64,000 bases of DNA from positions 257,245 to 321,244 of the forward strand of contig JBBPIQ010000001.1 of assembly GCA_038040345.1 (NCBI GenBank), in the 5' to 3' direction. Below the pieces are notes generated by a model. That model did no database searches. It saw only the letters and a program-made list of their open reading frames with translations, and had not been told where the DNA came from. Both the position numbers and the translations under genes were made by a program. Of the stretch, positions 5,975 through 42,485 are shown in pieces; position 1 is the first letter of the stretch; each line of letters starts with the position of its first letter. This DNA is from Chloroflexota bacterium. Its GTDB lineage: Bacteria > Chloroflexota > Limnocylindria > P2-11E.

Positions 5975-6595
5975 CTACACGCCGTCGACAGCCGGGCCGG
6001 GGCGAGCAGGCGCGCTCAGGCGATTCGACTGAAGAGCCGCGAGTATGTGCACGGCCGACGCGATGTCACTCGCGTCCTCGGACATGTGCGACCAGATGAT
6101 GGTGCCGTCGATATCGATGATCATCGCGCCGCCGAGCTGGGCGAAGTCACCGATCGTGCGGCCCTGAAACACGCCGTGTTTCGCGATGGCCATGACGCCC
6201 TTGGCGACGACGAGGGGCCCAAGCAGCTCGTCCATGGTTGCGACCTTCGCGCCTGCTGCCTTATAGGTCAGGCGCTCTGCGTCGGCGAGCACGGGCAGGT
6301 CGATCCCTTGGGTGCGGCGGAAATGCGCTGCGTGAGGCGGCGTGGCCTGGCCGATCAGGACCAGGCGCGCGCCTGCCTCCGCAAAGCTGGCGCGGTCACG
6401 GTGCAACTGCACCGCATGTGCACGGCAGAACGTTCAGCCGTAGTGGCGCAGCCAGACCAGCACCGCAGGGCGGTCGCGCCAGAGATCTCCAAGTCGCACC
6501 ACGCGTCCCTCGTGGTCTGGCAGCGTGATATCGACGAGCTCATCGGCACGCCGCGGTGGCGACGCGTGCTGACGTTCCGTCGCGGTGCCAAACAC
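5975..6595 (-). CDS. TlpA/AhpC-TSA (Prx-like) thiol:disulfide oxidoreductase; candidate selenoprotein with in-frame TGA (6434-6436) giving a UxxC motif (…VLVWLRHYG-U-TFCRAHA…)
   Basis: A single reading frame runs from GTG 6595 through TGA to the stop at 5975. The region around the TGA matches the TlpA-family FWASWCxPCR redox motif, with Sec in place of the first Cys. Downstream is a thioredoxin-fold region (DLPVLADAERL, IIDIDGTIIW). Hairpin 6397-6416. Confidence 0.6.
6397..6416 (-). promoter_or_regulatory. SECIS-like hairpin (mRNA UGCGGUGC-AGUU-GCACCGUG) 18-37 nt downstream of the in-frame UGA of the Prx-like gene
   Basis: 8-bp stem (with G-U pairs) and a GU-containing tetraloop, seen directly. 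Confidence 0.4.
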
Positions 6596-6605
6596 GATGC
6601 GACGC

Positions 6606-6998
6606 CTACCTCGCCGCGGTGGTCGCAGATTCGACCGGGCGCCCAGCTGCGACCCACGCCTTGAACCCGCCGTCGAGGTGAGCAACGTTCGTGTAGCCCA
6701 TGTCCGTGAGCGCGGCGGCCGCAAGCGCCGAGCGTCCCCCGGTCGCGCAGTGAAGGATGATGCGGCGCTCCGGCTCGAAGCCCTCCTGGTGGTACGGGCT
6801 CGTCGGATCGGCGCGGAACTCGAGCATGCCGCGTGGCACGTTGACCGAACCCGCGATGCGTCCCGACTCGGCGAGCTCAGCTGGTTCACGCAGATCGACG
6901 AGCAGCACGCCCGCAGCGCGCTCCTTGTCGACCCCAGCAACATCGAGGTTCTCGATCTTCGCCTTCGCCTCGGCGACCAACTCAACAGCCTTCTTCAT
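6606..6998 (-). CDS. Single-domain rhodanese (sulfurtransferase), Cys-containing active site HCATGGRS
   Basis: CxxGxR active-site loop. GGAG Shine-Dalgarno sequence 7 nt upstream of ATG 6998. Stop is 10 nt before the Prx-like start. Confidence 0.8.
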   Translation of the reverse strand: MKKAVELVAEAKAKIENLDVAGVDKERAAGVLLVDLREPAELAESGRIAGSVNVPRGMLEFRADPTSPYHQEGFEPERRIILHCATGGRSALAAAALTDMGYTNVAHLDGGFKAWVAAGRPVESATTAAR

Positions 6999-7073
6999 CG
7001 TCGTGCTCCTTTCGTTCCTGAGCGTGTGACGGACGGTAGTGACCGCCACCACGCCGGTCGTCAGGAGTTCGCC

Positions 7074-8648
7074 CTACAAATCGAGCGGCTCGAACGTGTC
7101 GAGGAGGCCGTGCTGCATCGCGAAAAGCGTCGCCGTGGACCGCGTCGACGCGCCGATCTTGCTGTAAATGCGCTCGATGTGGGTGCCCGCCGTCTTCGCA
7201 GAGATGCCGAGTGCCTGCGCCACCTGGCGGTTGGATGCACCGCGGGCAATCAGCGCCAGGACCTCGACCTCGCGAGGGGTCAGCCCGGCGGGTCCGCTTC
7301 GTCGCTTGCCCTGGCTTTGTCCCGCTGCCGCGAGGACGGCGTCGACACCGTCCACGTCGAAGCGCGCCGCACGCACGTCACGACGCAGTTCCGTCGCAGC
7401 CTGCTTCGGGGTCATCGCAGGTCGGTAGGAACGCGGCTCGATCATCGCGCGGTATGCGCACGCTGCGCCGAGTAGCCGACCCCCGACGGGAATCGCGGGC
7501 CGAGTGAGGGCGCGGTGATAACCCGAGCCGTCGCAGCGCTCATTGGTCAACGAGGCGATCGCGCCGAGCCGGGCAAGTACGGGTGGCCGCGACAGCACTC
7601 GCTCGGTGTAGTAGGCATGCATCCGCATGCGCTCCCATTCGGATCGCGAGAGCGGACCCGGCTTCTCGAGGATCGTTGCGGGGACACCGTGCAATCCGAT
7701 GTCGTGCAGCAGGCCCGCGCGCCGGAGTGCCACGACCTCAGCCTCGGGAAGCCCCACATAGGCTGCGGCTGTCGACACCAAGTCGGCGACCCCGCGCGAA
7801 TGACCGGCACGCGACGGCGAGCGTAGATCCGTGAAGTCGGCAACGGCCTCGAGCGCCACGTCGAACTCATCCTCGGAGAGGCGTTGCTGCAACGACGGCT
7901 CGTCTGCGATGAGCATCTGCCAGTCGGTGTCGATCACGGGATCACCGAGCACGTCATCCGCGACGGCGGCGAAGGCGGCAACGACCGCGGGATCGAACTG
8001 CGTTCCGCGCCGCTCGCGCGCGACAGTGACCGCAGCCCGCGTCCCCTCGACGCGCTGCACCACCTCCACGACATCGGCGAGCTGATACAGACGCATTGGC
8101 AGCGCGATCGCGTCGCCCGCAACGCCGAGCGGCACACCTTTGCCGTCCCACCGCGTGAAGAACTGGTTCAGCGGGTCGCGCACCTCAACGCCGAGCCCCA
8201 GCCGGTCGGCCATCGTTGCCGTGACGAGGCAGTGGGAGTGGATAACGGCTTCGATCGCACTCCGTCCGGCGGCCATGAGACTGGCGGCGACCCGAAGGCG
8301 TCGCAGAGATGGGCGGCCGGCTCCGGCGTGCCGGAGCATGAATCCGACGAGCGGCAGACCGGACTGGTCGAGCTCATAGCCGTCGTGCCGGTAGGCGATG
8401 TCGTCACCGAACCACGCGGACAGTTCAGGCGTGTCCGCGACGCAGCCGACCCACGCAAGAGTGGCGACATAGTAGAGCGCGCCGCGCTCGTCACGTTTGA
8501 TGCCGACGTGGTCCCCGAGACGAGCGGCAATGAGCCATGACCGCAGGACATGCTCCATCGGCTGACCGAGACCGAGGTCGACCGCCAGCGTGAACGCCGC
8601 GACGAGCTCTGCGAGCCGAAGGCCCGAATCGTCCGCAGCGCCCTTCAC
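7074..8648 (-). CDS. HD/HD-GYP-like domain protein with C-terminal LuxR-type HTH (transcriptional regulator)
   Basis: LLHDIGL HD motif, then C-terminal LTPREVEVLALIARGASNRQVAQALGISAKTAGTHIERIYSKIG. Confidence 0.7.
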   Translation of the reverse strand: MKGAADDSGLRLAELVAAFTLAVDLGLGQPMEHVLRSWLIAARLGDHVGIKRDERGALYYVATLAWVGCVADTPELSAWFGDDIAYRHDGYELDQSGLPLVGFMLRHAGAGRPSLRRLRVAASLMAAGRSAIEAVIHSHCLVTATMADRLGLGVEVRDPLNQFFTRWDGKGVPLGVAGDAIALPMRLYQLADVVEVVQRVEGTRAAVTVARERRGTQFDPAVVAAFAAVADDVLGDPVIDTDWQMLIADEPSLQQRLSEDEFDVALEAVADFTDLRSPSRAGHSRGVADLVSTAAAYVGLPEAEVVALRRAGLLHDIGLHGVPATILEKPGPLSRSEWERMRMHAYYTERVLSRPPVLARLGAIASLTNERCDGSGYHRALTRPAIPVGGRLLGAACAYRAMIEPRSYRPAMTPKQAATELRRDVRAARFDVDGVDAVLAAAGQSQGKRRSGPAGLTPREVEVLALIARGASNRQVAQALGISAKTAGTHIERIYSKIGASTRSTATLFAMQHGLLDTFEPLDL

Positions 8649-8675
8649 GTTCGTCAGCCTACTGGGCCGCCCGCC

Positions 8676-9221
8676 TTACGTTCGCCGGACCTCGGTCGTA
8701 TGCGCCACACGGTTGTCCATCGCCCAGATCGCGGGGCAACGCTCGTCCGCAAGTCGCTTCACCCGCGCGACCTCGTCCTCCGACGCGTCGGTCGCGACAT
8801 CGAGCTCGAACGCGAACGCATTGAGTGGGGGCACCTCGGCGACGCCGAGCGCGGGACGAAAGTCGACCTGGAGGCGAAGGCGTGCGCGCAGGCTCTTGAT
8901 CTTCATGCCGACCATCGCCGCCTGCATCGCATATGTCGACGCGTAGCAGGAGAGGGCACCCCAGAAGCAGTAGATGAGGGGGGACGGAGCGCGACCGTCT
9001 CCGCTCAGGAACGCAGGGAAGTCGGCCTCGAAAGTCGTCTCGCCCCTTGCGTACTTCACCGTTCCGCCGAACTGCGCCTTGGTCTCGTCGGTGCGCCAGT
9101 CGCCGACGAGATCCACACTCAACTGGGCCGCGCTTGGATCGGCCTTCGCCTTCTCCGCGGTCGCCCGCGCGTTGTCGACTCGCACGTTGTGCAGCGTCGC
9201 CATCGTCCCGTCCCTCATCAC
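8676..9221 (-). CDS. OsmC/Ohr family peroxiredoxin-like protein (Cys-containing)
   Basis: Conserved OsmC cysteines (LIYCFWGALSCY, ERCPA). Start uncertain (the alternative MATLHN start was not adopted). Confidence 0.75.
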   Translation of the reverse strand: MMRDGTMATLHNVRVDNARATAEKAKADPSAAQLSVDLVGDWRTDETKAQFGGTVKYARGETTFEADFPAFLSGDGRAPSPLIYCFWGALSCYASTYAMQAAMVGMKIKSLRARLRLQVDFRPALGVAEVPPLNAFAFELDVATDASEDEVARVKRLADERCPAIWAMDNRVAHTTEVRRT

Positions 9222-9300
9222 AATGATGTTCGCTCGCCCTCCGAGAGAGCAACGTGGCGGAGTCTAGGCGAGGTCGCTAGCAGCTCTTGATTCGCCGTTC

Positions 9301-9397
9301 CCTTGAAAGAGATGAGGTCGAGAGAAGCTGCCTAGCACGACTTCTGAGCACGACTCGGGCCGCTCATAACTCGAAAACACGCGTCAGAAAAGCGGCC
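9301..9397. repeat. 97-nt repeat copy B, preceded by a degenerate tRNA-Glu T-arm/anticodon remnant (gattcg…ccttgaaag)
   Basis: Alignment with 5831-5927. Lies between the OsmC start and the stop of the ArsM-like gene. Confidence 0.6.
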
Positions 9398-9441
9398 CAA
9401 GGAACGAAATGAAGGGGGGCGGCAGGCCGCCTTCGGTCAGC

Positions 9442-10230
9442 TCAAGCTGGTTTGCGCGCGTAAACGGTCACGCCGCGCGTCTCGAAGTCCTTGGCGTCAC
9501 TTTCGTGCTTGCTGCCGGCGAACACGTCGACCTCATTAGACATAACGATGTCCGTGAAGCCGGTCTGTTCGAGGAGCACGCGCCACTCTGCATCCAGCAG
9601 AGCCCCGGCAATTCAGCCGCTCCAGAGCGCGATGTCGTCCTTCGCATCCTGAGGAACTTCTTTATGCACGAGGATGTCTCCGATCTGGATCCGCCCGGTG
9701 GGCTTGAGGACACGGAGCATTTCGCCGAACACCGCGCGCTTATCGGGGCACAGGTTGACCACCCCGTTGCTGATGATGACGTCCGCGAAGCCGTCATCGA
9801 CGGGCAGCACTTCCGCGAAGCCTTCGCGGACGTCGACGTTGGAGAGTCCCATCTCGCGTGCGCCTTCTTGCGTCCTCTCCCGCATCTCCGCCGTCATATC
9901 GACGGCGACGACCCGACCGCTCGGCCCGACCTGCTGCGCGGCGATCAGGGTGTCAACGCCCGCGCCGCAGCCGACGTCGACCACGCGTTCGCCCGCGCTA
10001 AGATCGCCGAACAAGAAGGGGTTCCCCGTGCCGGCGAATGACGCGAGGTTTGTCGCCGGAACGCGGTCGATGAGTTCGCTGGGGTAGCCGAGCATTAGGG
10101 CCAAGGGTCGACCGGTGTGAAAGTGGAATCCGAGTTCGGGGTTGGTGGCGACTTCGCTGTACTTCTCGGAGATGAACCGACGAAGCTCATCGCGATCGAT
10201 CCGCGCCACTCCGATCTGTTGCGCAGTCAC
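9442..10230 (-). CDS. ArsM-like class I SAM-dependent methyltransferase; candidate selenoprotein with in-frame TGA (9613-9615) at the conserved catalytic Cys position (…DIALWSG-U-IAGALL…)
   Basis: SAM motif VVDVGCGAG. The conserved ArsM C-terminal domain (IAGALLDAEWRVLLEQTGFTDIV…GVTVYARKP) continues in frame for 56 codons after the TGA to the stop at 9442. Hairpin 9586-9602, exactly 11 nt after the UGA. Confidence 0.6.
9586..9602 (-). promoter_or_regulatory. SECIS-like 17-nt hairpin (mRNA CUCUGC-UGGAU-GCAGAG) starting 11 nt downstream of the in-frame UGA of the ArsM-like gene
   Basis: Perfect 6-bp stem (7 with a G-U pair) and a 5-nt loop. The spacing matches the canonical bacterial SECIS. 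Confidence 0.45.
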
Positions 10231-10316
10231 CCTAACGACCTCCGTTCGCGCTCGAATGAATGGCCCGGAGGATACTGCGCGTCTAGCGTTTTTCGATGAA
10301 CAGTGGGAGGAGTCTG

Positions 10317-10682
10317 ATGGCGAAACTACTGATCACGACCGTGGCTGGTCCCGATGATCCAACCCGCGCCAGCCTCGGTTTCCACATGGCCGTGAACGGC
10401 GCGGTCAAGAACGAGATCGATACGAGCATCGCGATGGCCGGCGATGCGATCGAGCTGCTCAAGCCCGGCGCGGCGGATCACGTCCGGGGCGTTGGCGTTC
10501 CGCCTCTAGTCGAGCTGCTTTCCGGCTGCGTCGCCGCCGGGGTCAAGATCTACGTCTGAAAGGGTTGCGCTGAGGCCCGTGGGGTCTCGCAGCCGGACCT
10601 CGCAGCGATCAAAGCCGAGTACATGACACCGCCGACCCACACGCGCATGGTGATGGAGGCTGACCGAAACATCAGCTTCTAG
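10317..10682 (+). CDS. DsrE/DsrF/YchN-like protein; candidate selenoprotein with in-frame TGA (10557-10559) giving a UxxC motif (…VKIYV-U-KGC-AEARGV…)
   Basis: GGGAGGAG Shine-Dalgarno sequence 4 nt upstream of ATG 10317 (an alternative ATG exists at 10296). The region around the TGA aligns with YchN VKLCKTCTDGRGI. The frame continues 41 codons to TAG 10680-10682. Hairpin 10571-10589. Confidence 0.6.
10571..10589 (+). promoter_or_regulatory. SECIS-like hairpin (UGAGGCCC-GUG-GGGUCUCG) starting 12 nt downstream of the in-frame UGA of the DsrE-like gene
   Basis: 7-8 bp stem with a G-U pair and a GUG loop. Confidence 0.4.
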
Positions 10683-10688
10683 CCGCGC

Positions 10689-11738
10689 CTACTTCTTCAG
10701 CTCGGTCGACAGCCCCTTGAAGATCGTGAGATCGATCGCCTTGAGCAAGTCGTCGGTGCTCGCTTTCAGAAGGCCGACGTCCGTGAGCAGCGGTGCGTAG
10801 AAGCGGACCGCCTTCTCGAGGTCGTACGTGCGCCAGTCGAGAGGCACCATGTTCGCCGCAACAGTTATGTTCGCGAGCGCCGCCGCGCCGCCAAAGAGTC
10901 CCTTATCCGCGGCGAGCTTCGCCGCATCGCTGCGATCGGCGGTGAGGGTGTCCGCGGTGCGATAGATCGCGCGCATCGCACGCTTCGCGGCGATCGGGTT
11001 CGCGCGATACCACGGCTCGCTCGCGATGATGAAGCAGCAGTTGGTGCTCTTCCAGGGCTCGTCCATAACCTGCGAGAAAATCACGTGTCCCTTATTCGCG
11101 GGGTTCGCCTTCAGCGCAGCGGCTGCCGTCGTGGCCACGTACATCACGTCGCTCTTGCCATCGAGGTAGAGCTTCAGCACGTCGGCGTCGGCCTGCACGA
11201 CGAAATTCACATCCTTCGGGTCGACTCCGGCCTGCTTGAGCGCCATCGCCATCCAGCTGTATGGCAGGTTGGTAAGAGCCTTGGAAGTTACGGAGATGGT
11301 GCGCCCCTTGAGATCCTTCAGCGAGGCAATGCCCGGCTGCGCCCAGATCTCATTGCATCCGGGGTGGAGCCCACCTAGCGCGACAACCTTCGGGCCGCTC
11401 TCGACCGAGTTGAAGACCGCCTGCGGGAATGCGTTGCCAATGTCGGCGTTACCTGCCGCGATCGCCGTGGTGGTGACCGCGTCAGTGAACTTCACGTCGG
11501 TGAAGCCTTCCTCGCGGAGATAGCGCTCGGCCCCAAAGATCGCGCTGTCGCATGCGCCAGCCGCAAGCCGGATCGAGGTCGTCTCCGGCGGCGCCAGCGT
11601 TGCCGTCGCAGTCGGGACCGGAGCCGTCGCCGTTGCGGCAGACGAGCCTGCGGGTGCGCACGAAGCGAGAAATGGTCCGGCGGTCAACGCGGCGGCGGCA
11701 CCCATGCCGCGGCGCAGCACCTCACGTCTCGTGACCAT
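10689..11738 (-). CDS. ABC transporter substrate-binding protein (NMT1/SsuA/TauA-like, NitT/TauT family) with Tat signal
   Basis: N-terminal RREVLRRGMGAAAALTAG twin-arginine motif. Periplasmic binding-protein fold signatures. Confidence 0.7.
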   Translation of the reverse strand: MVTRREVLRRGMGAAAALTAGPFLASCAPAGSSAATATAPVPTATATLAPPETTSIRLAAGACDSAIFGAERYLREEGFTDVKFTDAVTTTAIAAGNADIGNAFPQAVFNSVESGPKVVALGGLHPGCNEIWAQPGIASLKDLKGRTISVTSKALTNLPYSWMAMALKQAGVDPKDVNFVVQADADVLKLYLDGKSDVMYVATTAAAALKANPANKGHVIFSQVMDEPWKSTNCCFIIASEPWYRANPIAAKRAMRAIYRTADTLTADRSDAAKLAADKGLFGGAAALANITVAANMVPLDWRTYDLEKAVRFYAPLLTDVGLLKASTDDLLKAIDLTIFKGLSTELKK

Positions 11739-13219: not shown

Positions 13220-13717
13220 TCACTCCACGAGGACGGCCGCGCGCATACGCTGATCAGCGTGCCCGGGCACGCTGCAGTACGCGTCGTAGCGTCCTGGGGG
13301 CAGCCCGCGAAGGCCAACTGTCTTGGTTTCGCCGGGGTTCGCCACGATGTGGATCCCGAGCGCCGGCACAGTGAGGTCGTGCATTACGCCGTTTGCTGCG
13401 GGGTTGCTTAGCGTCAGATTCACTTCCGTCGCGTGCGGGACGCGGATCTCGCTGGGCGTGAAGCTGAAGTTCAGGGCCACTACCCGCACCTCGGTTGCGC
13501 CGGGAATGGCGGACGCGGCGGGGCCGGCGTTGCCGAAGCCCATCATCCCGGGACCCATGGGCGCTTGGCCCATCATGCCGGGGCCTATCTGCCAAGACCC
13601 GTTCGGGAATGCGCTCGCACCACCGGCGGCTTGGCCGATCGCCAATGCGGCGATGCCGAGGAGCAGAAGGATGCCCGACACCACTGCCACCGAGCCGGCG
13701 ACCCGCTGGGCGGTCAT
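13220..13717 (-). CDS. Membrane-anchored cupredoxin (type-1 copper protein, plastocyanin/azurin-like)
   Basis: C-terminal YCSVPGHADQRM copper ligand set (H…C…H…M). N-terminal TM helix. Gly/Met/Pro-rich linker. Confidence 0.65.
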   Translation of the reverse strand: MTAQRVAGSVAVVSGILLLLGIAALAIGQAAGGASAFPNGSWQIGPGMMGQAPMGPGMMGFGNAGPAASAIPGATEVRVVALNFSFTPSEIRVPHATEVNLTLSNPAANGVMHDLTVPALGIHIVANPGETKTVGLRGLPPGRYDAYCSVPGHADQRMRAAVLVE

Positions 13718-13950
13718 CGCTTCGTCTCTTCGATCGCGGCGCGCCGAGTGCGGAACTCCTCCGTGTCGATCTCGCCACGCGCCAGTCGCTCTTCGAGGAT
13801 CCGAAGGGCACCGCTATCCCCTCCGCGGGCATGCTGTTGTCGCGAGAGCGTCAGGACTGCCCAGACGATTCCCGCGATCACGAAGACCCAAAAGAGCAGC
13901 ATCAAGAGTCCGCCGAAACCGAACCAATAGCCGTTCATATATGGCATCAC
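13714..13950 (-). CDS. SHOCT domain membrane protein
   Basis: N-terminal TM helix plus C-terminal LEERLARGEIDTEEF SHOCT motif. ATGA overlap with the cupredoxin gene. Confidence 0.65.
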   Translation of the reverse strand: MMPYMNGYWFGFGGLLMLLFWVFVIAGIVWAVLTLSRQQHARGGDSGALRILEERLARGEIDTEEFRTRRAAIEETKR

Positions 13951-14112: not shown

Positions 14113-15456
14113 TCACCAAGGCTCCGGGGCGAGCGCTCTCGATTCTCCAGGCGCACGCGTTTCGGGAAGTCGACCGAGCGTCACGAGACCCGAAGCCAGT
14201 GTCAGGGCGGCCACGACCCCGACGGCCCAATTCAGACCGAGCCGGTCCGCGACGATTCCGGCGACGAGCGCTCCGATCACGTAACCCGCGTCCCGCCAGA
14301 AGCGATACACGCCGGTCGCGGTCGCTCGCCATTGTGGGTGTGCGACATCGGAGACGACCGCGAGCAGCGTGGGATAGACCAAGGCCGTGCCCAGACCGAG
14401 AGCGGCCATGCCGACGAGCGCGAGCCAGAAATCGGGCGCGATCGCGAGCACACCCAGTGCGGCCGCCTGTACGAACATTCCACCGACGATCAGCCACCGC
14501 CTGCCAAATGCATCGGACATGGCTCCGGTCGCAAGTTGCGCCACGCCCCAAACGGCGGGGTACGCACCGGCCAGAACGCCGACCTGTTGGAGATCACGGC
14601 CCGAAGCGAGGAAGAGCAACGGCAGCAGACCCCACGCGACACCGTCGTTGAGGTTATTCACCAGACCGGCTTGGCTCGCAGCAGAGAGCGCACGGTCACG
14701 CCAGGTGGTCCGCGCGAAGATCTCGCCCAGCGATGGAAGGGGCTCCGACGGACGGTCCGTCGCTTCTGCGCGCGCGTGCTCGACGGACTCTCGGGTTGCG
14801 AGCGAAAGCCCCAGACCAAGGATGGCGAACGCAAGGCCGAGGAGAAAGGGCTGCGGTCGTAGGGCGGTGGCGGCCGCGAGCTCGCTCCCGGCGAAGGCGG
14901 CGAGACCGACTGCGAGGTAGCCAGCGAACTCGTTGATCCCAAGGGCCAGCCCGCGGCGGGCAGGCCCCACGAGATCAACCTTCATGATGATGGTCATCGA
15001 CCAGCAGAGGCCCTGATTCACGCCCAGGAAGAGATTCGCGGCGACGACCCAGCCCCAGTTGGGCGCGAGGATGATTAGCACGGGGACGGGTAGGCCGAAG
15101 AGCCAGCCTGCGATGAGCAGCCGCCTTCGACCCACCCGGTCCGCGAGTGCGCCGGCGGCCAGGTTGGTCACCGCCTTGGTTGCGCCGAAGCTGGCGATGA
15201 AGGTAAGGAGCGCGGCCCACGAGGCGACCCCGACTCCTGCTCGCCGAGGACCGGCAAGATCGCCCGCTCGAGCCCGACCATCGCTCCGACGAAGGCATTG
15301 ACGGCGACGAGCAACGCGAACTGCCTCCAGTTCGCGCGCAGACCCAGTCGGATCCCGACCACTGACGGGACTACGAGAGCGAACGCTCCAGCACTGCGAT
15401 TTGCCACACCCACCCGCGCCGCTGCATGACCGGACGCAAACCGGCGGACTCGGCAA
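14113..15456 (-). CDS. MFS transporter with an apparent single-base frameshift near 15228-15238; TM1 lies in the other frame (ORF 15168-15521)
   Basis: The 15168-15521 frame gives …FALLVAVNAFVGAMVGLERAILPVLGEQ. The long frame resumes at …VASWAALLTFIASFGATKAVTNLAAGALADRVGRRR, the MFS D/GRR motif. This is a pseudogene or a sequencing indel. Confidence 0.6.
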   Translation of the reverse strand: MPSPPVCVRSCSGAGGCGKSQCWSVRSRSPVSGRDPTGSARELEAVRVARRRQCLRRSDGRARAGDLAGPRRAGVGVASWAALLTFIASFGATKAVTNLAAGALADRVGRRRLLIAGWLFGLPVPVLIILAPNWGWVVAANLFLGVNQGLCWSMTIIMKVDLVGPARRGLALGINEFAGYLAVGLAAFAGSELAAATALRPQPFLLGLAFAILGLGLSLATRESVEHARAEATDRPSEPLPSLGEIFARTTWRDRALSAASQAGLVNNLNDGVAWGLLPLLFLASGRDLQQVGVLAGAYPAVWGVAQLATGAMSDAFGRRWLIVGGMFVQAAALGVLAIAPDFWLALVGMAALGLGTALVYPTLLAVVSDVAHPQWRATATGVYRFWRDAGYVIGALVAGIVADRLGLNWAVGVVAALTLASGLVTLGRLPETRAPGESRALAPEPW

Positions 15457-16021
15457 TCGCGAGGATCCGGCGCGGGTCGTGAATGTAGAGGCGGAAGGCG
15501 CAGCCGCGGAGCCGGAACCAAATGCGGCTAAGCAATTGCCCGACCCGCCACCACCAGCGGTCGGCAGGAAAGCTCAACGCCAGGACTCTTGCCGCGTGGT
15601 TGGCCGAGACGCCGACCAACGCTTCCATGTCTGGATAGCAGCAGATCACCCGATGAAGCAGCACGATGTCCGCGCGCGGTACCTGGTCACCATCCTGGGC
15701 GAAATCAAGGACGGTGCGATCGACACGGGCGGTGAGGCCGACGGTTTCCAACAGGTCACGGGCTGCCTGCTCGTACGTATCCACGAGCTCCACATTGGTC
15801 GCGCGCGTCGCCCCCGCACGGAGCAGCTCGATCTCGAGGGCGCCGATACCGCCGCCGACTTCCAACACGCTCGCCCCGGCGACACCTCGATTCACGATCT
15901 CATCGACCATCCGCTGACCGGTGGGATCCAATCCTTTCTTCAGATAGGTTTGCGCGTCGCTCCTCGCGTTCTTCTCGTCGAAGAGCTCCGCGTAACCATC
16001 CCTACCGCAGCACGCTGGCAT
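15371..16021 (-). CDS. Class I SAM-dependent methyltransferase with N-terminal Cys pair (MPACCGRDGY…)
   Basis: VLEVGGGIG SAM motif. N-terminal CC dyad. Sits within the metal ATPase operon. Confidence 0.7.
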   Translation of the reverse strand: MPACCGRDGYAELFDEKNARSDAQTYLKKGLDPTGQRMVDEIVNRGVAGASVLEVGGGIGALEIELLRAGATRATNVELVDTYEQAARDLLETVGLTARVDRTVLDFAQDGDQVPRADIVLLHRVICCYPDMEALVGVSANHAARVLALSFPADRWWWRVGQLLSRIWFRLRGCAFRLYIHDPRRILAIAESAGLRPVMQRRGWVWQIAVLERSLS

Positions 16022-16041
16022 CGCTCAACCCAAGCGCGTCG

Positions 16042-16546: not shown

Positions 16547-18958
16547 TTAGGTCGTCTGCGCGAGGCTGCGTTCGGATCGACGCAAGAGGAGCGCGTTGGT
16601 CACAACGGTGATGGAGCTAGCGCTCATAGCTAAGGCGCCGAACTCCGGGCGGAGCAGAAGCCCGAACGCGGGATATAGGACGCCGGCCGCCACCGGGATC
16701 GCGACCAGGTTGTACGCCGCGGCCCAGAACAGGTTCTGCTTCATCTTCCGGACGGTCGCCTTCGAAAGGCGGATCGCGGCGAGCACGTCGCGGGGATCCG
16801 AGCGCATGAGCACAATGTCCGCGGTCTCGATCGCCACATCAGTGCCCGCGCCGATCGCGATGCCAAGATCCGCCTGCGCGAGCGCCGGGGCGTCGTTGAT
16901 TCCGTCGCCCACCATCGCCACGAACTTCCCTTCCGAGTGCAGGCGCTTGACTTCCTCCGCCTTGTGCTCAGGCAACACCTCGGCGAGTACCCGTTCGATG
17001 CCGAGCTCGCCGGCGACTGCCTCTGCGGTCTGCCGGTTATCGCCGGTGAGCATGGCGACCTCGATCCCGATCGCCCGGAGTCCCGCGACGGCGGCACGGG
17101 CGGTGGGCCGCGGCGTGTCTCGCACGGCGACGAGGCCGGCTACTTCGCCGTCCACGGCGACGATCGTGATGGTCTTGCCGGCGCGCAGAAGGTCGTCGAG
17201 CGCCGCGCTGATCGCATCGAGGCGGATGCCGCTTTCCTCCATCAGCCGCCTGGTCCCGACCACCACGAGACGACCATCGACGCGGGCACGCACGCCACGT
17301 CCGCCCAGGGCCTCGAACTCGTCGATCCGAGTGGGCACCTCGATGCCGCGCCGGGTCGCTTCATCGAGGAGCGCCTTCGAGACCGGATGGCCCGAGCGCG
17401 ACTCCGCTCCCGCCTCCAGTCGGAGCAGCTCACGGTCGTCGAGCGGCGGCAGGGCGATTACGTCGGTGACGCGCGGCTTTCCTTCGGTGAGGGTGCCGGT
17501 CTTGTCGAAGACGACGACGTGGATCTTCGACGCAAGCTCGAGGCTCGTCGCCTGTTTGAAGAGGATGCCGTGCTTCGCGCCGATGTCCGTGGCGACCATG
17601 ATCGCGGTCGGCGTCGCGAGGCCGAGGGCGTCGGGACACGCGATGACGATGGCGGTGACCGCGAGCGTGAGCGCGAAGAGCACGGGTTCGCGCGCGATGA
17701 GCGTCCAGTACAGGAACGTGAGCACGCCGGAGGCGACCGCGACGATCACGAGGTAGTGCGCCGCGCGGTCGGCGAGGCGCTGCGCCGGCGGCTTCGAGGC
17801 CTGCGCGCGCTCGACCATCGCCGCGATGCGCGCGAGCGTCGTGTCGGAGCCGACCTGCGTCGCGCGGGTGCGGATCGACCCGCTCTGGTTGACGGTCCCG
17901 GCCACGACCTTCGCGCCCGCTTCCTTCTCGACCGGGATCGACTCTCCCGTCACCATCGACTCATCGATCGAGGTGTGCCCGTCGATCACCACGCCGTCGA
18001 CCGGCACGCGCTCGCCCGGGCGGAGCACGACGATGTCGCCCACGCGCACCTCAGACACCGGGACGCGGACGACCTTCCCGTCCCGCTCGACGTTGGCTTC
18101 TGCGGGCGCGAGCTCGAGGAGCTTGCGCACGGCATCCGATGAGCCCCGTCGGGCGCGCATCTCCATCCAGTGGCCGAAGAGGAGGAAGGTCGCGAGCATC
18201 ACCGCCGCTTCGTAGAAGGTCTCGCCGCCGACGGTGAACGTGAGCCCGACGCTGAAGAGGTAGCTGACGAGGATGCCGAGCGAGACGAGCACGCTCATGT
18301 TCAGCACGCCGGAGCGAATGGAGCGCCACGCACCGACGTGGAAGACGCTCGAGGCCCAGAGCGCGACCGGCGTGCTGAAGGCCAGGAGGATCCAGTTGCG
18401 ATCGACCGGCGCCGGGAGCTCACGGCCGCCCAGCAGGAGGGTGCCCAGCGGCGAGTAGGCGATCACCGGGAGCGAGAGCACGAGCGCGATGAAGAAGCGC
18501 CGGCGCATGTCGTCTTCCATCGCCGCGGCCATGCGCGGGTCGGACATGTCGTGGCCCATCGCCTCATGGCCGCCATGCGCGGCCGTCTTCGCGGCGGCGT
18601 GGTGCATCGCCTCGTGGGAGCTGACCTCCGCCTCCGGCAACGGCACCGGGTTGCGGAAGTTGCACTCCTCGATCTGCTTCCGAAGCGTCGCCACGTCGGT
18701 CACTCCTGTGTGAACGGTTACGTCCGCGATCTTCCGGGTCAGATCAACGTGCGCATCAACGACATGCGGGAGCTGCTTGATCGCGCTCGCGAGATCGTCC
18801 TGGCAGCAGGGGCAGAAGACGTGATCGAGCGGGAACTCCAACGTCTCCGTCGCGGGCACCGCCGGTGTGCGCTGTGCGGCCGTCACCGCAACGAAACGAG
18901 GGACTGCTGCACTAGGTCCAACCGAAGGCGCGGAAGGCTCCATACGTGGCGAGCGCAA
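16547..18958 (-). CDS. Heavy-metal-translocating P1B-type ATPase with atypical motifs: N-terminal CPCC metal-binding motif, His-rich stretch and a TM6 CPD motif in place of CPC
   Basis: DKTGTLT, GDGINDAP and TGES motifs. TM motif IACPDALGLATP (codons tgt ccc gac were read directly). N-terminal …DHVFCPCCQDDLASAIKQLPHVVDAHVDL and MHHAAAKTAAHGGHEAMGHDM. Confidence 0.85.
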   Translation of the reverse strand: MRSPRMEPSAPSVGPSAAVPRFVAVTAAQRTPAVPATETLEFPLDHVFCPCCQDDLASAIKQLPHVVDAHVDLTRKIADVTVHTGVTDVATLRKQIEECNFRNPVPLPEAEVSSHEAMHHAAAKTAAHGGHEAMGHDMSDPRMAAAMEDDMRRRFFIALVLSLPVIAYSPLGTLLLGGRELPAPVDRNWILLAFSTPVALWASSVFHVGAWRSIRSGVLNMSVLVSLGILVSYLFSVGLTFTVGGETFYEAAVMLATFLLFGHWMEMRARRGSSDAVRKLLELAPAEANVERDGKVVRVPVSEVRVGDIVVLRPGERVPVDGVVIDGHTSIDESMVTGESIPVEKEAGAKVVAGTVNQSGSIRTRATQVGSDTTLARIAAMVERAQASKPPAQRLADRAAHYLVIVAVASGVLTFLYWTLIAREPVLFALTLAVTAIVIACPDALGLATPTAIMVATDIGAKHGILFKQATSLELASKIHVVVFDKTGTLTEGKPRVTDVIALPPLDDRELLRLEAGAESRSGHPVSKALLDEATRRGIEVPTRIDEFEALGGRGVRARVDGRLVVVGTRRLMEESGIRLDAISAALDDLLRAGKTITIVAVDGEVAGLVAVRDTPRPTARAAVAGLRAIGIEVAMLTGDNRQTAEAVAGELGIERVLAEVLPEHKAEEVKRLHSEGKFVAMVGDGINDAPALAQADLGIAIGAGTDVAIETADIVLMRSDPRDVLAAIRLSKATVRKMKQNLFWAAAYNLVAIPVAAGVLYPAFGLLLRPEFGALAMSASSITVVTNALLLRRSERSLAQTT

Positions 18959-19079
18959 CGAGCGCGATCCAGCAGAACCAATACAACGCCGTCATCCACC
19001 ACGCGTTGCGCGTGCCGAGCTGCGCTTCGACGGCGTGTTCCTTGCCGGTGCCCACGCGGTTGTTATCGGGTACTTCGGC

Positions 19080-33699: not shown

Positions 33700-33927
33700 C
33701 TAGTGGTGTGCTCCGTCAGTAGGCTCGGGAGCGGTCGAGTAGGCGCGCGCGTCGTCGATCAGCCACGTCGCGATGCCGATCACCATGATGACCGCGCCGA
33801 GCACGAGAAAGACAGGACCGAGCAGGACCCCGAACGCGAGCAGCATCACGCCGAATCCGAGGAGCGGCGGGGAGAAGCTCGGTTGCGGAAGATGGATGGG
33901 GTGGTCGTCCTCGTGATGCGATGACAT
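33700..33927 (-). CDS. ctaF: Cytochrome c oxidase subunit IV (CtaF-like small subunit)
   Basis: 75 aa with two TM helices, immediately upstream of ctaE. Confidence 0.55.
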   Translation of the reverse strand: MSSHHEDDHPIHLPQPSFSPPLLGFGVMLLAFGVLLGPVFLVLGAVIMVIGIATWLIDDARAYSTAPEPTDGAHH

Positions 33928-33988
33928 CGCGACGCAGATTAGCGCCGCGATTGGCGCGTGTCGAAATCTCGCCCTAGTCTCTCTCGCG

Positions 33989-34948
33989 ATGGGTCCTTGG
34001 CCGCTCGACCCGCGCGGGCCGCTGGCCGAATCGATCAGCTTTCTCTACTGGATCATGTTCGCCGCCGCAGTGGTCGTGCTGGCGATCGTGGTCGGTGCTC
34101 TCACGTACTCCGGCATCAAGTTCCGCGACCGGCCCGGCCGCGTAGCGCAACAAATCCACGGCCAGAACACGCTCGAGCTGATCTGGACGGTCGTTCCCAC
34201 CCTTATGGTCATCTCGTTCACGGTGGCCTCCTGGGACCGGCTCAACTTCATCAACGACGTGAACTCGAACGTGGCGATGACCGTGAAGGTCGAGGGCCGG
34301 CAATGGGCGTGGGGCTTTACCTATCCCGACCAGGCCATGTTCAAGCTGCCCGACGGGACGCTGCTTCAATCCGGAGAGCAGCTCGATATCCCGGTCGGCC
34401 AGAAGATCAAGCTCGAGCTGACCTCGAAGGACGTCATCCACTCGTTCTGGGTGCCGAACCTCGGTGGGAAGAAGGACGCCGTGCCGGGCCACACCACCAC
34501 GATGTGGATCCAGGCCGACCAGCCCGGAACGTACAAGGGACAGTGCTTCGAATTCTGCGGCGATGGCCACGCCGACATGCTCATCACGCTCGTCGCGCAC
34601 CCGCAGAGCGAGTACGGGGCCTGGGCGAAGACGGCCGTCGCGGACGCAGCGCGAGCGACCTCGCCCGAGACCAAGGCCGGCCGCGACGCATTCGTTTCGG
34701 GCCCCTGCGCCGGATGCCACACCGTGAAGGGCACGACGGCGGCCGGCAAGGTCGGCCCGGACCTCTCACATATCGCGAGCAAGCCGAACATCGCCGGCGT
34801 GCTCTCGCCGGTGAACCAGGAGAACCTCACGAAGTGGATTCACAACGCGCCCTCATTCAAGCCGGGGATCCTCATGCCGAAGTTCGATGGAGTCCTCCCC
34901 GACAAGACGATCGATGACATCGTCCAGTGGCTGCTCACGCTGAAATAA
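33989..34948 (+). CDS. ctaC: Cytochrome c oxidase subunit II, caa3-type (CuA cupredoxin + C-terminal cytochrome c domain)
   Basis: CuA site H…CFEFCGDGHADM plus heme-c CAGCH. Confidence 0.85.
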   Translation: MGPWPLDPRGPLAESISFLYWIMFAAAVVVLAIVVGALTYSGIKFRDRPGRVAQQIHGQNTLELIWTVVPTLMVISFTVASWDRLNFINDVNSNVAMTVKVEGRQWAWGFTYPDQAMFKLPDGTLLQSGEQLDIPVGQKIKLELTSKDVIHSFWVPNLGGKKDAVPGHTTTMWIQADQPGTYKGQCFEFCGDGHADMLITLVAHPQSEYGAWAKTAVADAARATSPETKAGRDAFVSGPCAGCHTVKGTTAAGKVGPDLSHIASKPNIAGVLSPVNQENLTKWIHNAPSFKPGILMPKFDGVLPDKTIDDIVQWLLTLK

Positions 34949-34958
34949 CGAGACCGGC

Positions 34959-35735
34959 GTGAGCGACTCCGATCTTCCCGACTACGTCAAGGCCAATCGC
35001 GACCACTGGACCAAGAACAATGCCGCGTACACCGATGGCCGCGCCGAGCACGCCTGGAACGAGCAGGAGATCTCGTGGGGCGTCTGGAACACACCCGAAA
35101 GCGAGATCAACGTCCTTCCGGACGTCCGCGGCAAGGACGTCGTCGAGCTCGGCTGCGGCACCGCCTACGTCTCGGCCTGGCTGAAACGAGGCGGCGCGCG
35201 GCGTGTCGTCGGCGTCGACATCACGCCCGCGCAGCTCGACTCGGCACGGCGACTGAACACGAAGTACGGACTGGGCCTCGAGCTCATTGAGGCAAACGCG
35301 GAGGCGACCGGCCTACCCGGCGCGTCGTTCGATCTCGCGATCTCCGAATACGGCGCCTCGATCTGGTGCGATCCCTACAAGTGGATCCCCGAGGCCGCGC
35401 GGCTGCTTCGACCGGAAGGCGAGCTGGTGTTCCTTCGCAACTCGACGCTCTCCGTCCTGTGCATGCCCGAACACGGCAAGGTGCAGGAGCGTCTGCAAAG
35501 GCCGCAGCGGGGCCTGAACCGCCTCGACTGGCTCGACACTCAGGAGACTGAGTTCCAGCTGGGCAACGGCGATCTCATCCGGCTGCTGCGCAAATCGGGG
35601 TTCGAGGTGCTCGACATGGTCGAGATCTTCGCGTCGGCCGACGCGGTCAACCACCCGTTCTACGGCGAGTACATGTCGGTTGAGTGGGCGCAGAAATGGC
35701 CGTCCGAGGAGATGTGGCGCGCTCGGAAGCGCTAG
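34959..35735 (+). CDS. Class I SAM-dependent methyltransferase
   Basis: VVELGCGTAY SAM-binding motif. Confidence 0.7.
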   Translation: MSDSDLPDYVKANRDHWTKNNAAYTDGRAEHAWNEQEISWGVWNTPESEINVLPDVRGKDVVELGCGTAYVSAWLKRGGARRVVGVDITPAQLDSARRLNTKYGLGLELIEANAEATGLPGASFDLAISEYGASIWCDPYKWIPEAARLLRPEGELVFLRNSTLSVLCMPEHGKVQERLQRPQRGLNRLDWLDTQETEFQLGNGDLIRLLRKSGFEVLDMVEIFASADAVNHPFYGEYMSVEWAQKWPSEEMWRARKR

Positions 35736-36157
35736 GGCGCCTCTACCGTGAAGCCGGTGTGCATCCCGAGCTGGTAGTGGCCCGCGATGTTGCAGATGAA
35801 GACGTACTTCCCCGGTGTGAGGTCGAGAGTCACGGCCGCCGACTTCCCCGCGGGAATGCTGGGGATGTCACCGATCTTGCCGTCCTCTTTTGCTTTCGCC
35901 GACGGGCCGTCGACGGGAAGCTTGTCCGGAGCGAGGTCCGTCTTCAGCACTACAAAGCTGTGCTCCATCGTCCCGAGGTTGCGCACGCCGATCTTGATCT
36001 TGCCGGCCTTCACGCTCGGCACGTTCACCGTGATCTTGGAGTCCGCGAGCTCGGCAACGACCTGCGAGCCGGCGGGCGCGTCCGCGGTGGGGGTCGTGCA
36101 CGCCGCGACCAGAAGGGCAAGCGCCATCAGCGCTGGGACGAGTCGGCTGAACATCAT
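35732..36157 (-). CDS. Cupredoxin-like lipoprotein (plastocyanin/amicyanin-like)
   Basis: Lipobox LLVAAC. Copper ligands H…C…H…M (FICNIAGHYQLGM). Confidence 0.7.
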   Translation of the reverse strand: MMFSRLVPALMALALLVAACTTPTADAPAGSQVVAELADSKITVNVPSVKAGKIKIGVRNLGTMEHSFVVLKTDLAPDKLPVDGPSAKAKEDGKIGDIPSIPAGKSAAVTLDLTPGKYVFICNIAGHYQLGMHTGFTVEAP

Positions 36158-36969
36158 CTAGAGGCTATACGCTCGCGACGCTTCTGCATTTCCTCCTCCT
36201 CCGCGAGCCAGAGGAAGAACGCGACCGAGGCGGCCGCGAGGAAGACGAAGTCGCCGACGACCCACATGATCGCGCCGCCGACGCGCTGATCGGTCACGCG
36301 ATCCATATCGAAGATCGTCGTGTCGGAGACGCCTGCGTACGCCGTGTACAGGAGGCGCGACGAGAACGAGAGGATTCCGCCGAGCACCGTGTTCTGCGCC
36401 GCGCCGAGGACGAGGAGGTACGGCAGCCGTGCCCCGTAACCAAGCGTCGCGCGAAATGGCTCGGGATCGATGACCACGCTCCAGAAGACGAGCGCCGAGA
36501 GAAAGAACCACGCGTGCTCGACGACGTGGACGCGCGCATCGAGAAGCGCCGCGTCGTAGAGATTCGGCAGGTGCCAGGCGTAGAGGCCGCCGACGTAGAG
36601 AGCCGCCGCGACCAGCGGGTGCCGCACGAGATGCACGAACGTTCGGACCGCATGCGCGCGCGCGAGCGGGCGCACGACAGCGGCACGCACCCACGCGGGA
36701 AGCCCGCGTAGGAGCGGTCGGATCGGCGCGCCGAGCATGAGCAGCGGCGCCGCGGCGACGGTGAGGAGCATGTGCTGGACCATGTGCACCGCGAACGAGA
36801 CCGCCGCGTAGCTGTCGATCGGAGAGGCGAGCGCCGCGAGCAGCGCGGCAAGACCGAGGAGGAAGAGCGTCGTGCGCCACAGCGGCCAGCGCCGCCGCAT
36901 CCGCGCCACGCCGACCACGTAGACGATGGCGGCGAGCGCGGTCGCGATGGAGACGACTAAAGGCGCAAT
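36154..36969 (-). CDS. ctaG: Cytochrome c oxidase caa3 assembly factor CtaG (Bacillus-type)
   Basis: Multi-TM protein with the HMVQHMLL motif. Start approximate (overlaps the ctaAB stop; non-ATG). Confidence 0.55.
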   Translation of the reverse strand: MAPLVVSIATALAAIVYVVGVARMRRRWPLWRTTLFLLGLAALLAALASPIDSYAAVSFAVHMVQHMLLTVAAAPLLMLGAPIRPLLRGLPAWVRAAVVRPLARAHAVRTFVHLVRHPLVAAALYVGGLYAWHLPNLYDAALLDARVHVVEHAWFFLSALVFWSVVIDPEPFRATLGYGARLPYLLVLGAAQNTVLGGILSFSSRLLYTAYAGVSDTTIFDMDRVTDQRVGGAIMWVVGDFVFLAAASVAFFLWLAEEEEMQKRRERIASR

Positions 36970-38750: not shown

Positions 38751-38863
38751 GCGTTCAGACTAAGCGCGAGCGAGGAGCGATTCACTCGCGACGAGCGAGA
38801 TCGACGAGCGGTGTCGAGGCGGCGAGGCTCAGGCAGCAGCGCTGCCTGAGCTGAGCGCGACGA

Positions 38864-40540: not shown

Positions 40541-40583
40541 CTGGGGAGCCCCTCATCGCCATGCGCCTGTTTGTTGAGCTCGG

Positions 40584-41438: not shown

Positions 41439-42485
41439 TCAGCCTGCGGGCCGAGCCACCACGAGCTTGTCCTGGCCTGACATCGCGCCCCAGACCTCGC
41501 CGTGACGGCCGAGGAGTTGGCGCACGTTGGCGTTGCGCGACACGTGGGCGCGTACCGAGAAGGTCTCGGTGACCGGGTCAAAGCGCGCGAACCCATTTGC
41601 GCCCCAGTCGGTGACCCAGACGACGTCGGCGTCGTCCACGAACACCGCGTAGGCCATCGGGTTGTCGCCTGGGAGCTTCCACTCCTTCCACGACGCGCCG
41701 TCGTAGCGGGCGATTCGCCCGGCGTTCCACTCGCTCACCCAGACGCGGCTTTTCGAGTCACACCACACGCGGCGCGCGCCCTGGCCCGCGGTGGGCGGGA
41801 CGAGGACGGTCGCTCCGCCGGTCTCCTTCACGATTCGCCCGACGTAGCTGCCGGCCAGCGACGCGTAATAGATCTCACCATCAGGGCAGCTCGCGATCCC
41901 GTACGGTCCCGCGCCGCGCGGCGCGTCGAACACCGCCATCGCGCCGCTCTGCGTGTCGAGACGACCGAATACGCCGCTCTGGCCCGTGAACCAAAGCGTG
42001 CGGCCATCGCGATCGAACACCGCCGTGTTCAGGTTCGCGTTCGGGCGATCCACCGGCAGCGGGAAGCGCTTGACCTCGTTCGTCACGGGATCGACGCGAA
42101 CGATCGCATTGAGGCCGCCGTCCGTCACCCACGGCGCACCGTCGGGTCCGACGATCACGCCATGCGGCGCGGACCCCGCGCCGAGCTTGACCGCCTTCGT
42201 CAGGCCGAACTTCGGATCGAGCCAACCGAGCTCGCCAGTGAGCTGCGCCGTGTACCAGACACCTCCGTCACGCGCCGGCGCGACGTCGTGCGGTCCCTGC
42301 CCGCGCGCGACCGGGTACTCCTGCAGGACGAACGGGGTGTCTGTTGGCGGTGAGATCGGTGGACTGGTCGGGCTGGCCTGTTGCTGGCTCGGCGGGGGCT
42401 CGTCACTCCGGACGACGACGTCGTTTCCGTACGGTCGACAAGCGACCACGGTCAGGACCAGGGCCAGCCAGACCGCGCGGATCAC
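41439..42485 (-). CDS. Vgb/SMP-30-like beta-propeller lipoprotein (virginiamycin B lyase family)
   Basis: Repeated …GxWxTxxxGxxIxRxD… blades. GTG start chosen for the GTGA overlap with the copA stop. Lipobox TVVAC. Confidence 0.6.
   Translation of the reverse strand: MIRAVWLALVLTVVACRPYGNDVVVRSDEPPPSQQQASPTSPPISPPTDTPFVLQEYPVARGQGPHDVAPARDGGVWYTAQLTGELGWLDPKFGLTKAVKLGAGSAPHGVIVGPDGAPWVTDGGLNAIVRVDPVTNEVKRFPLPVDRPNANLNTAVFDRDGRTLWFTGQSGVFGRLDTQSGAMAVFDAPRGAGPYGIASCPDGEIYYASLAGSYVGRIVKETGGATVLVPPTAGQGARRVWCDSKSRVWVSEWNAGRIARYDGASWKEWKLPGDNPMAYAVFVDDADVVWVTDWGANGFARFDPVTETFSVRAHVSRNANVRQLLGRHGEVWGAMSGQDKLVVARPAG

Follow-up and report, generated by a model that had tools for sequence, protein, structure and literature searches.

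A probable selenocysteine-containing methyltransferase of the ArsM structural family in Chloroflexota

A 64,000-nucleotide stretch of a Chloroflexota genome (contig JBBPIQ010000001.1 of assembly GCA_038040345.1, positions 257,245 to 321,244; called the window below) carries on its minus strand a gene that resembles arsenite methyltransferase (ArsM) genes and has a UGA codon within its reading frame, at the place where ArsM proteins have their C-terminal As(III)-binding cysteine. Two questions follow: whether this UGA ends the protein or is read as selenocysteine (Sec), and which substrate the enzyme methylates. The best overall explanation is a selenoprotein of 262 residues that belongs to the ArsM structural family and comes from a Chloroflexota bacterium, probably a member of Limnocylindria; the UGA would be decoded, and the enzyme would probably act on a substrate other than arsenite. 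Judged from comparative sequence data, this explanation has a probability of about 85%. The features of the gene, including a hairpin that resembles a selenocysteine insertion sequence (SECIS), are as follows.

9442..10230, minus strand: coding sequence of the predicted ArsM-like S-adenosylmethionine (SAM) methyltransferase selenoprotein, 262 residues with Sec at residue 206; from translation and from Pfam, NCBIfam and PDB sequence and fold matches
10239..10243, minus strand: Shine-Dalgarno-like motif (GGAGG), located 8 nt before the GTG start; seen by inspection of the sequence
10230, minus strand: start codon GTG of the ArsM-like gene
9613..9615, minus strand: in-frame UGA, predicted residue U206, in the motif LWSG-U-IAG (UxxG); aligned with CmArsM Cys224 and with the Cys of homologues
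9585..9603, minus strand: SECIS-like hairpin with a 7-bp stem (GCUCUGC/GCAGAGU) and a 5-nt loop (UGGAU); centroid fold
9445..9612, minus strand: C-terminal part, 56 codons after the UGA (IAGALLDAEW...TRGVTVYARKPA); open frame with coding substitutions
9442-9444, minus strand: terminal stop TGA of the ArsM-like gene

Around the internal stop the frame translates as ...DIALWSG*IAGALLDAEWRVLLEQTGFTDIVM...GVTVYARKPA*, which is the reading that an earlier note on this DNA had given for 9442-10230; a longer reading of the same 262-codon frame is ...VPQDAKDDIALWSG*IAGALLDAEWRVLLEQTGFTDIVMSNEVDVFAGSKHESDAKDFETRGVTVYARKPA*. Pfam finds generic class I methyltransferase domains in the product (Methyltransf_31, 8.9e-29; Methyltransf_25; Methyltransf_11), and its glycine-rich SAM motif I, VVDVGCGAG, is that of a class I SAM-binding fold. 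A consensus scan of 8500-10900 found no promoter or terminator.

A scan for homologues, reduced to one genome per species, gives 80 loci. All are from Chloroflexota (Limnocylindria, Dehalococcoidia, Anaerolineae, Tepidiformaceae, Thermoflexaceae and Thermomicrobiales); the best match is 97% identical. Codon 206 is TGA in 77 of the 80 loci and TGC in one. The remaining two had no match to the motif search; these are L024 and L078, the latter of which ends before the site. The signature of UGA plus hairpin is present in at least 120 metagenome contigs. Two metagenome-assembled genomes (MAGs) have two copies of the methyltransferase gene: UCB2, with TGA in both (L026, L046), and SOY_30_metabat_212, with TGA in L050 and a second copy, L078, that stops at the contig edge before the codon.

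If the UGA were a genuine stop, the product would be a truncated methyltransferase of 205 residues or the gene would be a pseudogene, and the hairpin would be incidental, regulatory or a terminator. Gene callers do end the protein at this site. Nearly all gene models in the protein database stop at codon 203-205; among the best-matching 120 clusters of a protein search, about 95 are 203-205 residues long, share 78-98% identity and end exactly at the UGA site. In addition, no Sec machinery is seen in the window. The sequence beyond the UGA argues against a stop. In about 70 of 78 orthologues its frame runs on for 55-58 codons before the next stop, and it evolves as coding sequence: pairwise differences at codon positions 1, 2 and 3 are 0.246, 0.215 and 0.497 in the tail and 0.202, 0.179 and 0.502 in the upstream part, a near-identical pattern. 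Compared with the window protein, amino acid identity averages 74% over the tail and 72% over the body. Full-length homologues (63-72% identity) continue through the same position and read LWS(G/N)C-IAG across it; a protein ending at the UGA would lose two fold strands together with the residue that corresponds to the catalytic Cys. The hairpin is also gone where the codon is TGC. The earlier note held that its reading would fail if the 56 codons at the 3' end were not conserved or translated; they are conserved, with coding-type evolution. On these alignments UGA206 is not a stop, and the frame continues under purifying selection; a truncated protein or pseudogene is very improbable.

It is scarcely credible that UGA has been reassigned to Trp or Gly, as in genetic codes 4 and 25. 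One gene model in the protein database, the JGI call P0004 (L081 367-1149), shows Trp at the Sec codon. The underlying codon is TGA and was translated by JGI with code 4; this gene-calling artefact explains the Trp, which was rejected as a real substitution. TGA is the true terminal stop in 30 of the 78 orthologues, so UGA still functions as a stop elsewhere; it also terminates the ArsM-like gene itself and about 40% of the likely genes of the window. The residue of homologues at the site is Cys, not Trp or Gly. Given these comparative data, selenocysteine is the only reasonable reading of UGA206. As in other UxxG selenoproteins, the in-frame UGA (here U-I-A-G) aligns with a conserved Cys of non-selenoprotein homologues and is followed by conserved sequence with coding-type substitutions.

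As a SECIS-type element, the earlier note had pointed to a perfect 17-nt hairpin, CUCUGC-UGGAU-GCAGAG, beginning 11 nt after the UGA. This hairpin occupies 9602-9586 and starts with the 11th nt after the UGA. A closing G.U pair lengthens it to 19 nt (9603-9585), so that 9 nt separate the UGA from a 7-bp stem; counting from the U of UGA, the stem comprises nt 13-19 and 25-31. The single-sequence fold is modest (z = -1.79; 12 of 200 shuffles fold equally well in a 38-nt context). The comparison of 78 sequences is far clearer. All seven stem pairs are 100% paired, and the only two stem substitutions produce G.U wobbles. The loop is mostly UGGAW, and a G at loop position 2 or 3 is always kept.

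Selection on the hairpin is also visible at synonymous sites. Codons 210-215 (GCT CTG CTG nnn GCA GAG) are fixed despite the degeneracy of Ala, Leu and Glu codons; the frozen codons include A/T-ending ones, whereas the genome strongly favours codons ending in G/C. Third-position entropy is about 0 at codons 210-215; for 115 other conserved degenerate codons of the gene it averages 1.18, and none of these has an entropy of 0.15 or less (Mann-Whitney p = 1.2e-4 for the contrast at codons 207-217). The two Cys forms that can be read at the DNA level, L043 and P0001/L082 (TGC), use other codons and cannot form the hairpin. Stem pairing and frozen third positions together place the hairpin far above chance. 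As far as the aligned sequences tell, it is conserved at the nucleotide level and confined to UGA-bearing forms, and it behaves as expected for a bacterial SECIS: a stem-loop lies within the coding sequence soon after the UGA, with a G in the apical loop, and is under RNA-level selection that goes beyond the protein and is tied to the UGA. By the established bacterial mechanism, SelB carrying Sec-tRNA(Sec) would bind the hairpin on the translating mRNA and insert Sec at the UGA. The gene thus very probably encodes a true selenoprotein of the ArsM structural family whose Sec insertion depends on the SECIS.

Whether the source organism can decode Sec at all is a separate matter, and two other genes of the window bear on it.

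10317..10682, plus strand: predicted DsrE-like selenoprotein gene, 121 residues, divergent neighbour of the ArsM-like gene; from translation and a Pfam DsrE match over the whole read-through product
10557-10559, plus strand: in-frame TGA of the DsrE-like gene, reading V-U-K-G-C (UxxC), followed by 40 more codons with a conserved tail
10572-10588, plus strand: hairpin of the DsrE-like gene, 98.8% paired, with 2 compensatory pairs
5975..6595, minus strand: SelL-related candidate selenoprotein, with a TGA at 6434-6436, reading WLRHYG-U-TFC

Relatives of the DsrE-like protein have the same TGA in 12 loci and Cys in two (L052, L056). The SelL-related read-through product scores 133.5 bits against NF040769 ('SelL-related redox protein'), above the cut-off of 120. 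Three UGA-containing selenoprotein genes are thereby found within 4.7 kb (window 5975-10682), the SelL-related gene lying about 3 kb from the ArsM-like gene. Both DsrE-like and Prx/SelL-like proteins with a UxxC motif are catalogued selenoprotein families (PMC9312934, PMC13188914); on the strength of these two genes, the organism almost certainly decodes Sec. For Chloroflexi, published work documents both Sec use and tRNA-Sec (PMC1794560, PMC5389517). The SelL-related gene starts 10 nt beyond the stop of a rhodanese gene (6606-7052). In the window sequence alone, an 8-bp hairpin with the loop AGUU is predicted 17 nt past its UGA (first paired base, the 18th).

Several results tell against Sec decoding of the ArsM-like gene. 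Rfam, searched at gathering and permissive thresholds, returns no SECIS or other relevant family for the hairpin, only chance-level miRNA and snoRNA matches; with the weak z-score, this makes the window sequence unconvincing by itself. The hairpin of the earlier note fits a SECIS by its fully paired stem and frozen synonymous sites and does not fit any Rfam family. The hairpin shows no covariation, which is explained by a stem that never varies apart from the two changes to G.U wobbles. Pfam finds no SelA, SelB or SelD among 30 proteins of the window, and ARAGORN finds no tRNA-Sec in the window or in 60 related loci; selA, selB and selD are likewise not found in those 60 loci. The decoding machinery is therefore assumed and not seen.

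By profile, sequence and fold, the closest family is ArsM. The top NCBIfam matches are all of the ArsM type: two 'arsenite methyltransferase/... selenoprotein' models, the general ArsM model NF008823 and a 'methyltransferase/UXPK-star double selenoprotein' model. All scores are below the cut-offs, at 215.7 bits against 263 for NF008823, 221 against 510 for NF041537, 216 against 575 for NF041536 and 197 against 460 for NF047649. In a phmmer search of the PDB, the five best matches are all ArsM/AS3MT, led by 5evj (4.8e-25). An AlphaFold2 model of the Cys homologue P0001, which is 71% identical to the window protein, has a predicted local distance difference test score (pLDDT) of 91.6; its 13 best Foldseek matches in the PDB are ArsM/AS3MT chains (template modelling score, TM, 0.61-0.70), representing about five distinct proteins or variants.

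The family does not share three of the four cysteines that define ArsM. In residue-level alignments with 5evj and 4fr0/4kw7, the UGA falls on CmArsM Cys224, as the earlier note had placed it, and Cys-containing homologues exist. In the solved ArsM structures, the Cys at this site ligates As(III) beside the SAM methyl group. Cys72 (GCG) of CmArsM corresponds to Thr67 (AGTGNP), and Cys174 (ISNC) to Gly156 (ISNG); Cys161 of the window protein (NLC) falls on an ArsM Ser. The Cys44 region (TSAC) corresponds to an HFH motif, the Cys44 equivalent being His38 within GFHFHTG. These alignments agree with the earlier note's observations of ISNGVVNLC and of an absent N-terminal Cys pair. His38, Thr67 and Gly156 are invariant in all 79 members of the family alignment. 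Residue 206 is Sec in 78 of these members and Cys in one; Cys161, five residues downstream of Gly156, is present in 62 and replaced by Thr in 17, and Cys88 is within the SAM motif. The invariant motifs of the 79 sequences are GFHFHTG.PLA.MLGY, SFAGTGNPF, ISNGV.NL, VPQ.AKDDI.LWSGUIAGALL.AEW and DVFSGS.HESDA..F.TRG.

Of the Cys174/Cys224 pair only the Cys224 equivalent, Sec206, is present, and the Cys44/Cys72 pair is missing altogether. Since the other ArsM cysteines are replaced and Cys161 is limited to 62 of the 79 members, no chalcogen residue near the substrate site other than Sec206 is conserved in every member. Work on CmArsM in the Rosen laboratory is said to have established that Cys174 and Cys224 are required at every methylation step and Cys44 and Cys72 at the first. 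With three of these cysteines missing, the CmArsM chemistry cannot operate here as described. Sec206 would then be the single nucleophile that holds the substrate. Methylation of inorganic arsenite needs two or three thiolate ligands, so inorganic arsenite is probably not the substrate.

These data also bear on the reading implied by the catalogued family name, that of an ordinary As(III)-detoxifying ArsM with Sec in place of one of its As(III)-binding Cys residues. ArsM is indeed the nearest family by all three measures, JGI labels truncated orthologues 'arsenite methyltransferase', Sec is located exactly at the Cys224 position, and Cys161 could provide a second ligand where it is present. 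The fixed His, Thr and Gly at the other three positions, the NF008823 score below its cut-off and the 17 members with no second Cys near the site speak against this reading, as do the recurrent neighbours described below, which are sulfur-trafficking genes, with no recurrent arsenic-resistance genes seen. An ordinary ArsM is unlikely; from its sequence, the protein is likely something other than a canonical arsenite methyltransferase.

The neighbourhood of the gene gives a different indication of substrate. In the window, the relevant neighbours other than the two selenoprotein genes listed above are as follows.

10231..10316, no strand: intergenic region of 86 nt between the divergent ArsM-like and DsrE-like genes
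8676-9221, minus strand: OsmC-like gene, Cys form; match to NF041052 ('OsmC-related (seleno)protein') below cut-off
7074-8648, minus strand: HD-domain/LuxR regulator
6606-7052, minus strand: rhodanese gene

Five minus-strand genes are thus co-directional (ArsM-like with Sec, OsmC-like, HD-domain/LuxR, rhodanese and SelL-related with Sec), with the DsrE-like gene (Sec) divergent from them. The divergent ArsM-like/DsrE-like arrangement, with a gap of 73-87 nt, also occurs in L001, L004, L005, L006 and L078. Some other genes of the window have no evident link to the methyltransferase: two heavy-metal P-type ATPases with HMA domains (16547-18991 and 42482-44815, both minus strand), a cupredoxin-like protein (13220-13813, minus strand) and a cytochrome c oxidase cluster (33917-40552; COX2, COX1 and a CtaA/CtaB fusion). 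A second small SAM methyltransferase-like open reading frame (15371-16024, minus strand; weak Methyltransf_23 match) is unrelated and 5 kb away.

Across the homologous loci, neighbours were called from six-frame clusters of open reading frames that passed a codon-position GC filter (GC3>GC1>GC2), with a Pfam check and independent gene calls; the filter was adopted because unfiltered clustering was swamped by spurious high-GC frames. Recurrent neighbours are an ArsR-HTH/rhodanese fusion regulator, an MFS transporter, an MBL-fold protein with rhodanese domains, a DsrE-like (seleno)protein, an SQR-like flavoprotein, and DUF4395 and DinB-like proteins. At least one sulfur-trafficking gene (ArsR-rhodanese regulator, MBL-rhodanese, DsrE-like, rhodanese or SQR-like) lies within 5 kb in 35 of the 80 loci, and in 20 of the 42 that have at least 3 kb on both flanks; these genes are often on the same strand and less than 150 bp from the methyltransferase gene. 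None of the 22 largest neighbour clusters (each from at least three loci; six of them checked with Pfam) resembles ArsB, ACR3 or ArsC-type proteins.

An operon is found with both Sec- and Cys-type orthologues (L016, L018, L019, L023, L025, L026, L030, L037, L203 and L204). Its order is a divergent ArsR-HTH+rhodanese gene, DUF4395(-rhodanese), MFS, MBL-fold+rhodanese, a variable position occupied by DsrE-like (Sec), DUF5680 or peroxiredoxin genes, the methyltransferase and DinB-like. Independent gene calls give the same operons for two Cys-type orthologues, with genes that overlap or nearly abut. In L020 (6001-7335), from a Dehalococcoidia MAG, the frame of the Sec methyltransferase runs without a stop into a DinB-like domain, so that a tail of 220 residues follows Sec. 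As the methyltransferase and DinB-like proteins are encoded by separate neighbouring genes elsewhere, the two genes are fused here.

These neighbourhoods strengthen the suggestion, already made in the earlier note, that the substrate may not be arsenite. A tentative proposal is that the enzyme methylates sulfur or selenium species bound to Sec206. The rhodanese and DsrE-like carriers encoded alongside would deliver a sulfane-sulfur or selenium substrate, which would be held as a Se-S or Se-Se adduct, methylated by SAM and then released as a volatile or exportable methyl chalcogenide. In its fuller form, this would be a distinct, Sec-dominated methyltransferase family unrelated to arsenic, in which Sec takes sulfur or selenium from rhodanese/DsrE carriers within a sulfide-stress operon of the BigR/Blh type; the odds are against this fuller form, which is possible at best. 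If this is true, Chloroflexota that are abundant in soil and groundwater would make methanethiol, methyl persulfide or methylselenol by a new enzymatic route.

Further candidate substrates are soft metalloids for which one or two chalcogen ligands suffice, for example trivalent arsenicals that are already methylated (DMAs(III), MAs(III)), Sb or Te. DMAs(III) binds one thiol and MAs(III) two; the protein has the fold of ArsM, Sec is its single conserved ligand candidate, and Cys161 is optional. No arsenic genes are seen in the neighbourhoods, where the methyltransferase shares operons with rhodanese, DsrE and MBL-rhodanese genes; such a substrate is improbable.

The proposal of sulfur or selenium methylation at Sec206 has points to answer as well. 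Its sole basis is the gene neighbourhood, which has this sulfur character in about half of the loci; in the window itself it is confined to DsrE-like, rhodanese, OsmC-like and SelL-like genes. Arsenic clusters, too, can contain ArsR-type regulators and MFS pumps, and where Cys161 is present (62 members) it could act as a further As ligand.

Whatever the substrate, the Sec reading has consequences for annotation. Where gene models end at the UGA, the active-site residue and 56 C-terminal residues are missing from databases. The truncated products carry the label 'arsenite methyltransferase' from at least one pipeline, and surveys of arsM in soil may count genes that do not methylate arsenite, since the family lacks three of the four Cys that define ArsM and has no arsenic gene context. 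The Sec form is dominant across the phylum, the predicted SECIS is invariant at the nucleotide level, and the gene is paired with a second predicted selenoprotein gene (DsrE-like). The family is a clean, testable case for Sec retention and for possible Sec-dependent methylation of sulfur or selenium.

Enzymes with a comparable role are known. MddA, MddH, MddM1/2 and TMT1A/B detoxify toxic sulfide species by SAM-dependent methylation (PMC11445057, PMC12904073). They are functional analogues of the proposed activity; they are UbiE/UbiG-type or membrane proteins, with no catalytic Cys or Sec described. The Mdd-type H2S methyltransferases were considered as relatives and rejected, being, by their descriptions, UbiE/UbiG-type and not ArsM-like.

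The operon has a closer counterpart in gene content. BigR, an ArsR-type sulfide sensor, controls the bifunctional sulfurtransferase/dioxygenase Blh in a sulfide detoxification operon (PMC5823870). In BigR-Blh (Xylella, Agrobacterium) and cst operons, an ArsR-type regulator is located beside an MBL-fold dioxygenase/rhodanese and transporters, as is seen around the Chloroflexota methyltransferase. The Chloroflexota operon differs in that the regulator has a rhodanese domain of its own and in that three further proteins are encoded: the methyltransferase, a DsrE-like (seleno)protein and a DinB-like one. In the window locus the set is reduced to DsrE-like, rhodanese, OsmC-like and SelL-like genes. 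We know of no description of methyltransferase, DsrE-like or DinB-like proteins in BigR or cst operons.

In E. coli fdhF, the minimal SECIS consists of an upper stem-loop of 17 nt that lies 11 nt past the UGA, carries G/U in its loop and is bound by SelB. The Chloroflexota hairpin likewise lies within the coding sequence, 10-11 nt after the UGA, is 17-19 nt long and has a small apical loop with a G. Unlike the fdhF element, it has no bulged U, its loop is UGGAW and it has no Rfam match.

ArsM and AS3MT (CmArsM 4FR0/4KW7, CrArsM 5EVJ, human AS3MT 8XT7) share with the Chloroflexota protein a class I fold, an ArsM-type substrate domain and the motif (L/W)xG(C/U)xxGAL. The TSAC region of these enzymes is replaced by the invariant GFHFHTG. 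The Chloroflexota protein does not have their C-terminal third domain (262 residues, compared with about 370), and its gene context is not arsenic-related.

Sec at this position of an ArsM-like protein is in fact an already known kind. 'Arsenite (S-adenosyl)methyltransferase' with a UxxG motif is a listed bacterial selenoprotein family, credited to Fomenko et al. 2007 (PMC9312934, PMC13188914, PMC2398784), with WP_011987699.1 as an example (PMC9312934, PMC13188914); a 2016 survey recorded 41 such proteins in 39 organisms (PMC5029168). NCBIfam holds three models of ArsM-type selenoproteins (NF041536, NF041537, NF047649). In calling a Sec-containing methyltransferase of this type unusual, the earlier note overstated the case, because the family had already been catalogued. 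The catalogued proteins have the same Sec position and the same motif (U-I-A-G) as the window protein. Those covered by the three NCBIfam models are fusion or multi-Sec proteins with AhpD, DUF2284 or UXPK-star tails, extra domains that the window protein does not have. A Sec-dominated branch (77 of 80 species) is itself unusual among selenoprotein families. With the catalogued Sec-containing ArsM proteins compared by description only, the Chloroflexota branch without the three other ArsM cysteines and with an HFH motif instead appears to be undescribed. The same appears to apply to the predominance of the Sec form across a phylum, to the nucleotide-invariant candidate SECIS, and to the operon link with rhodanese, MBL-rhodanese, DsrE(Sec) and DinB genes.

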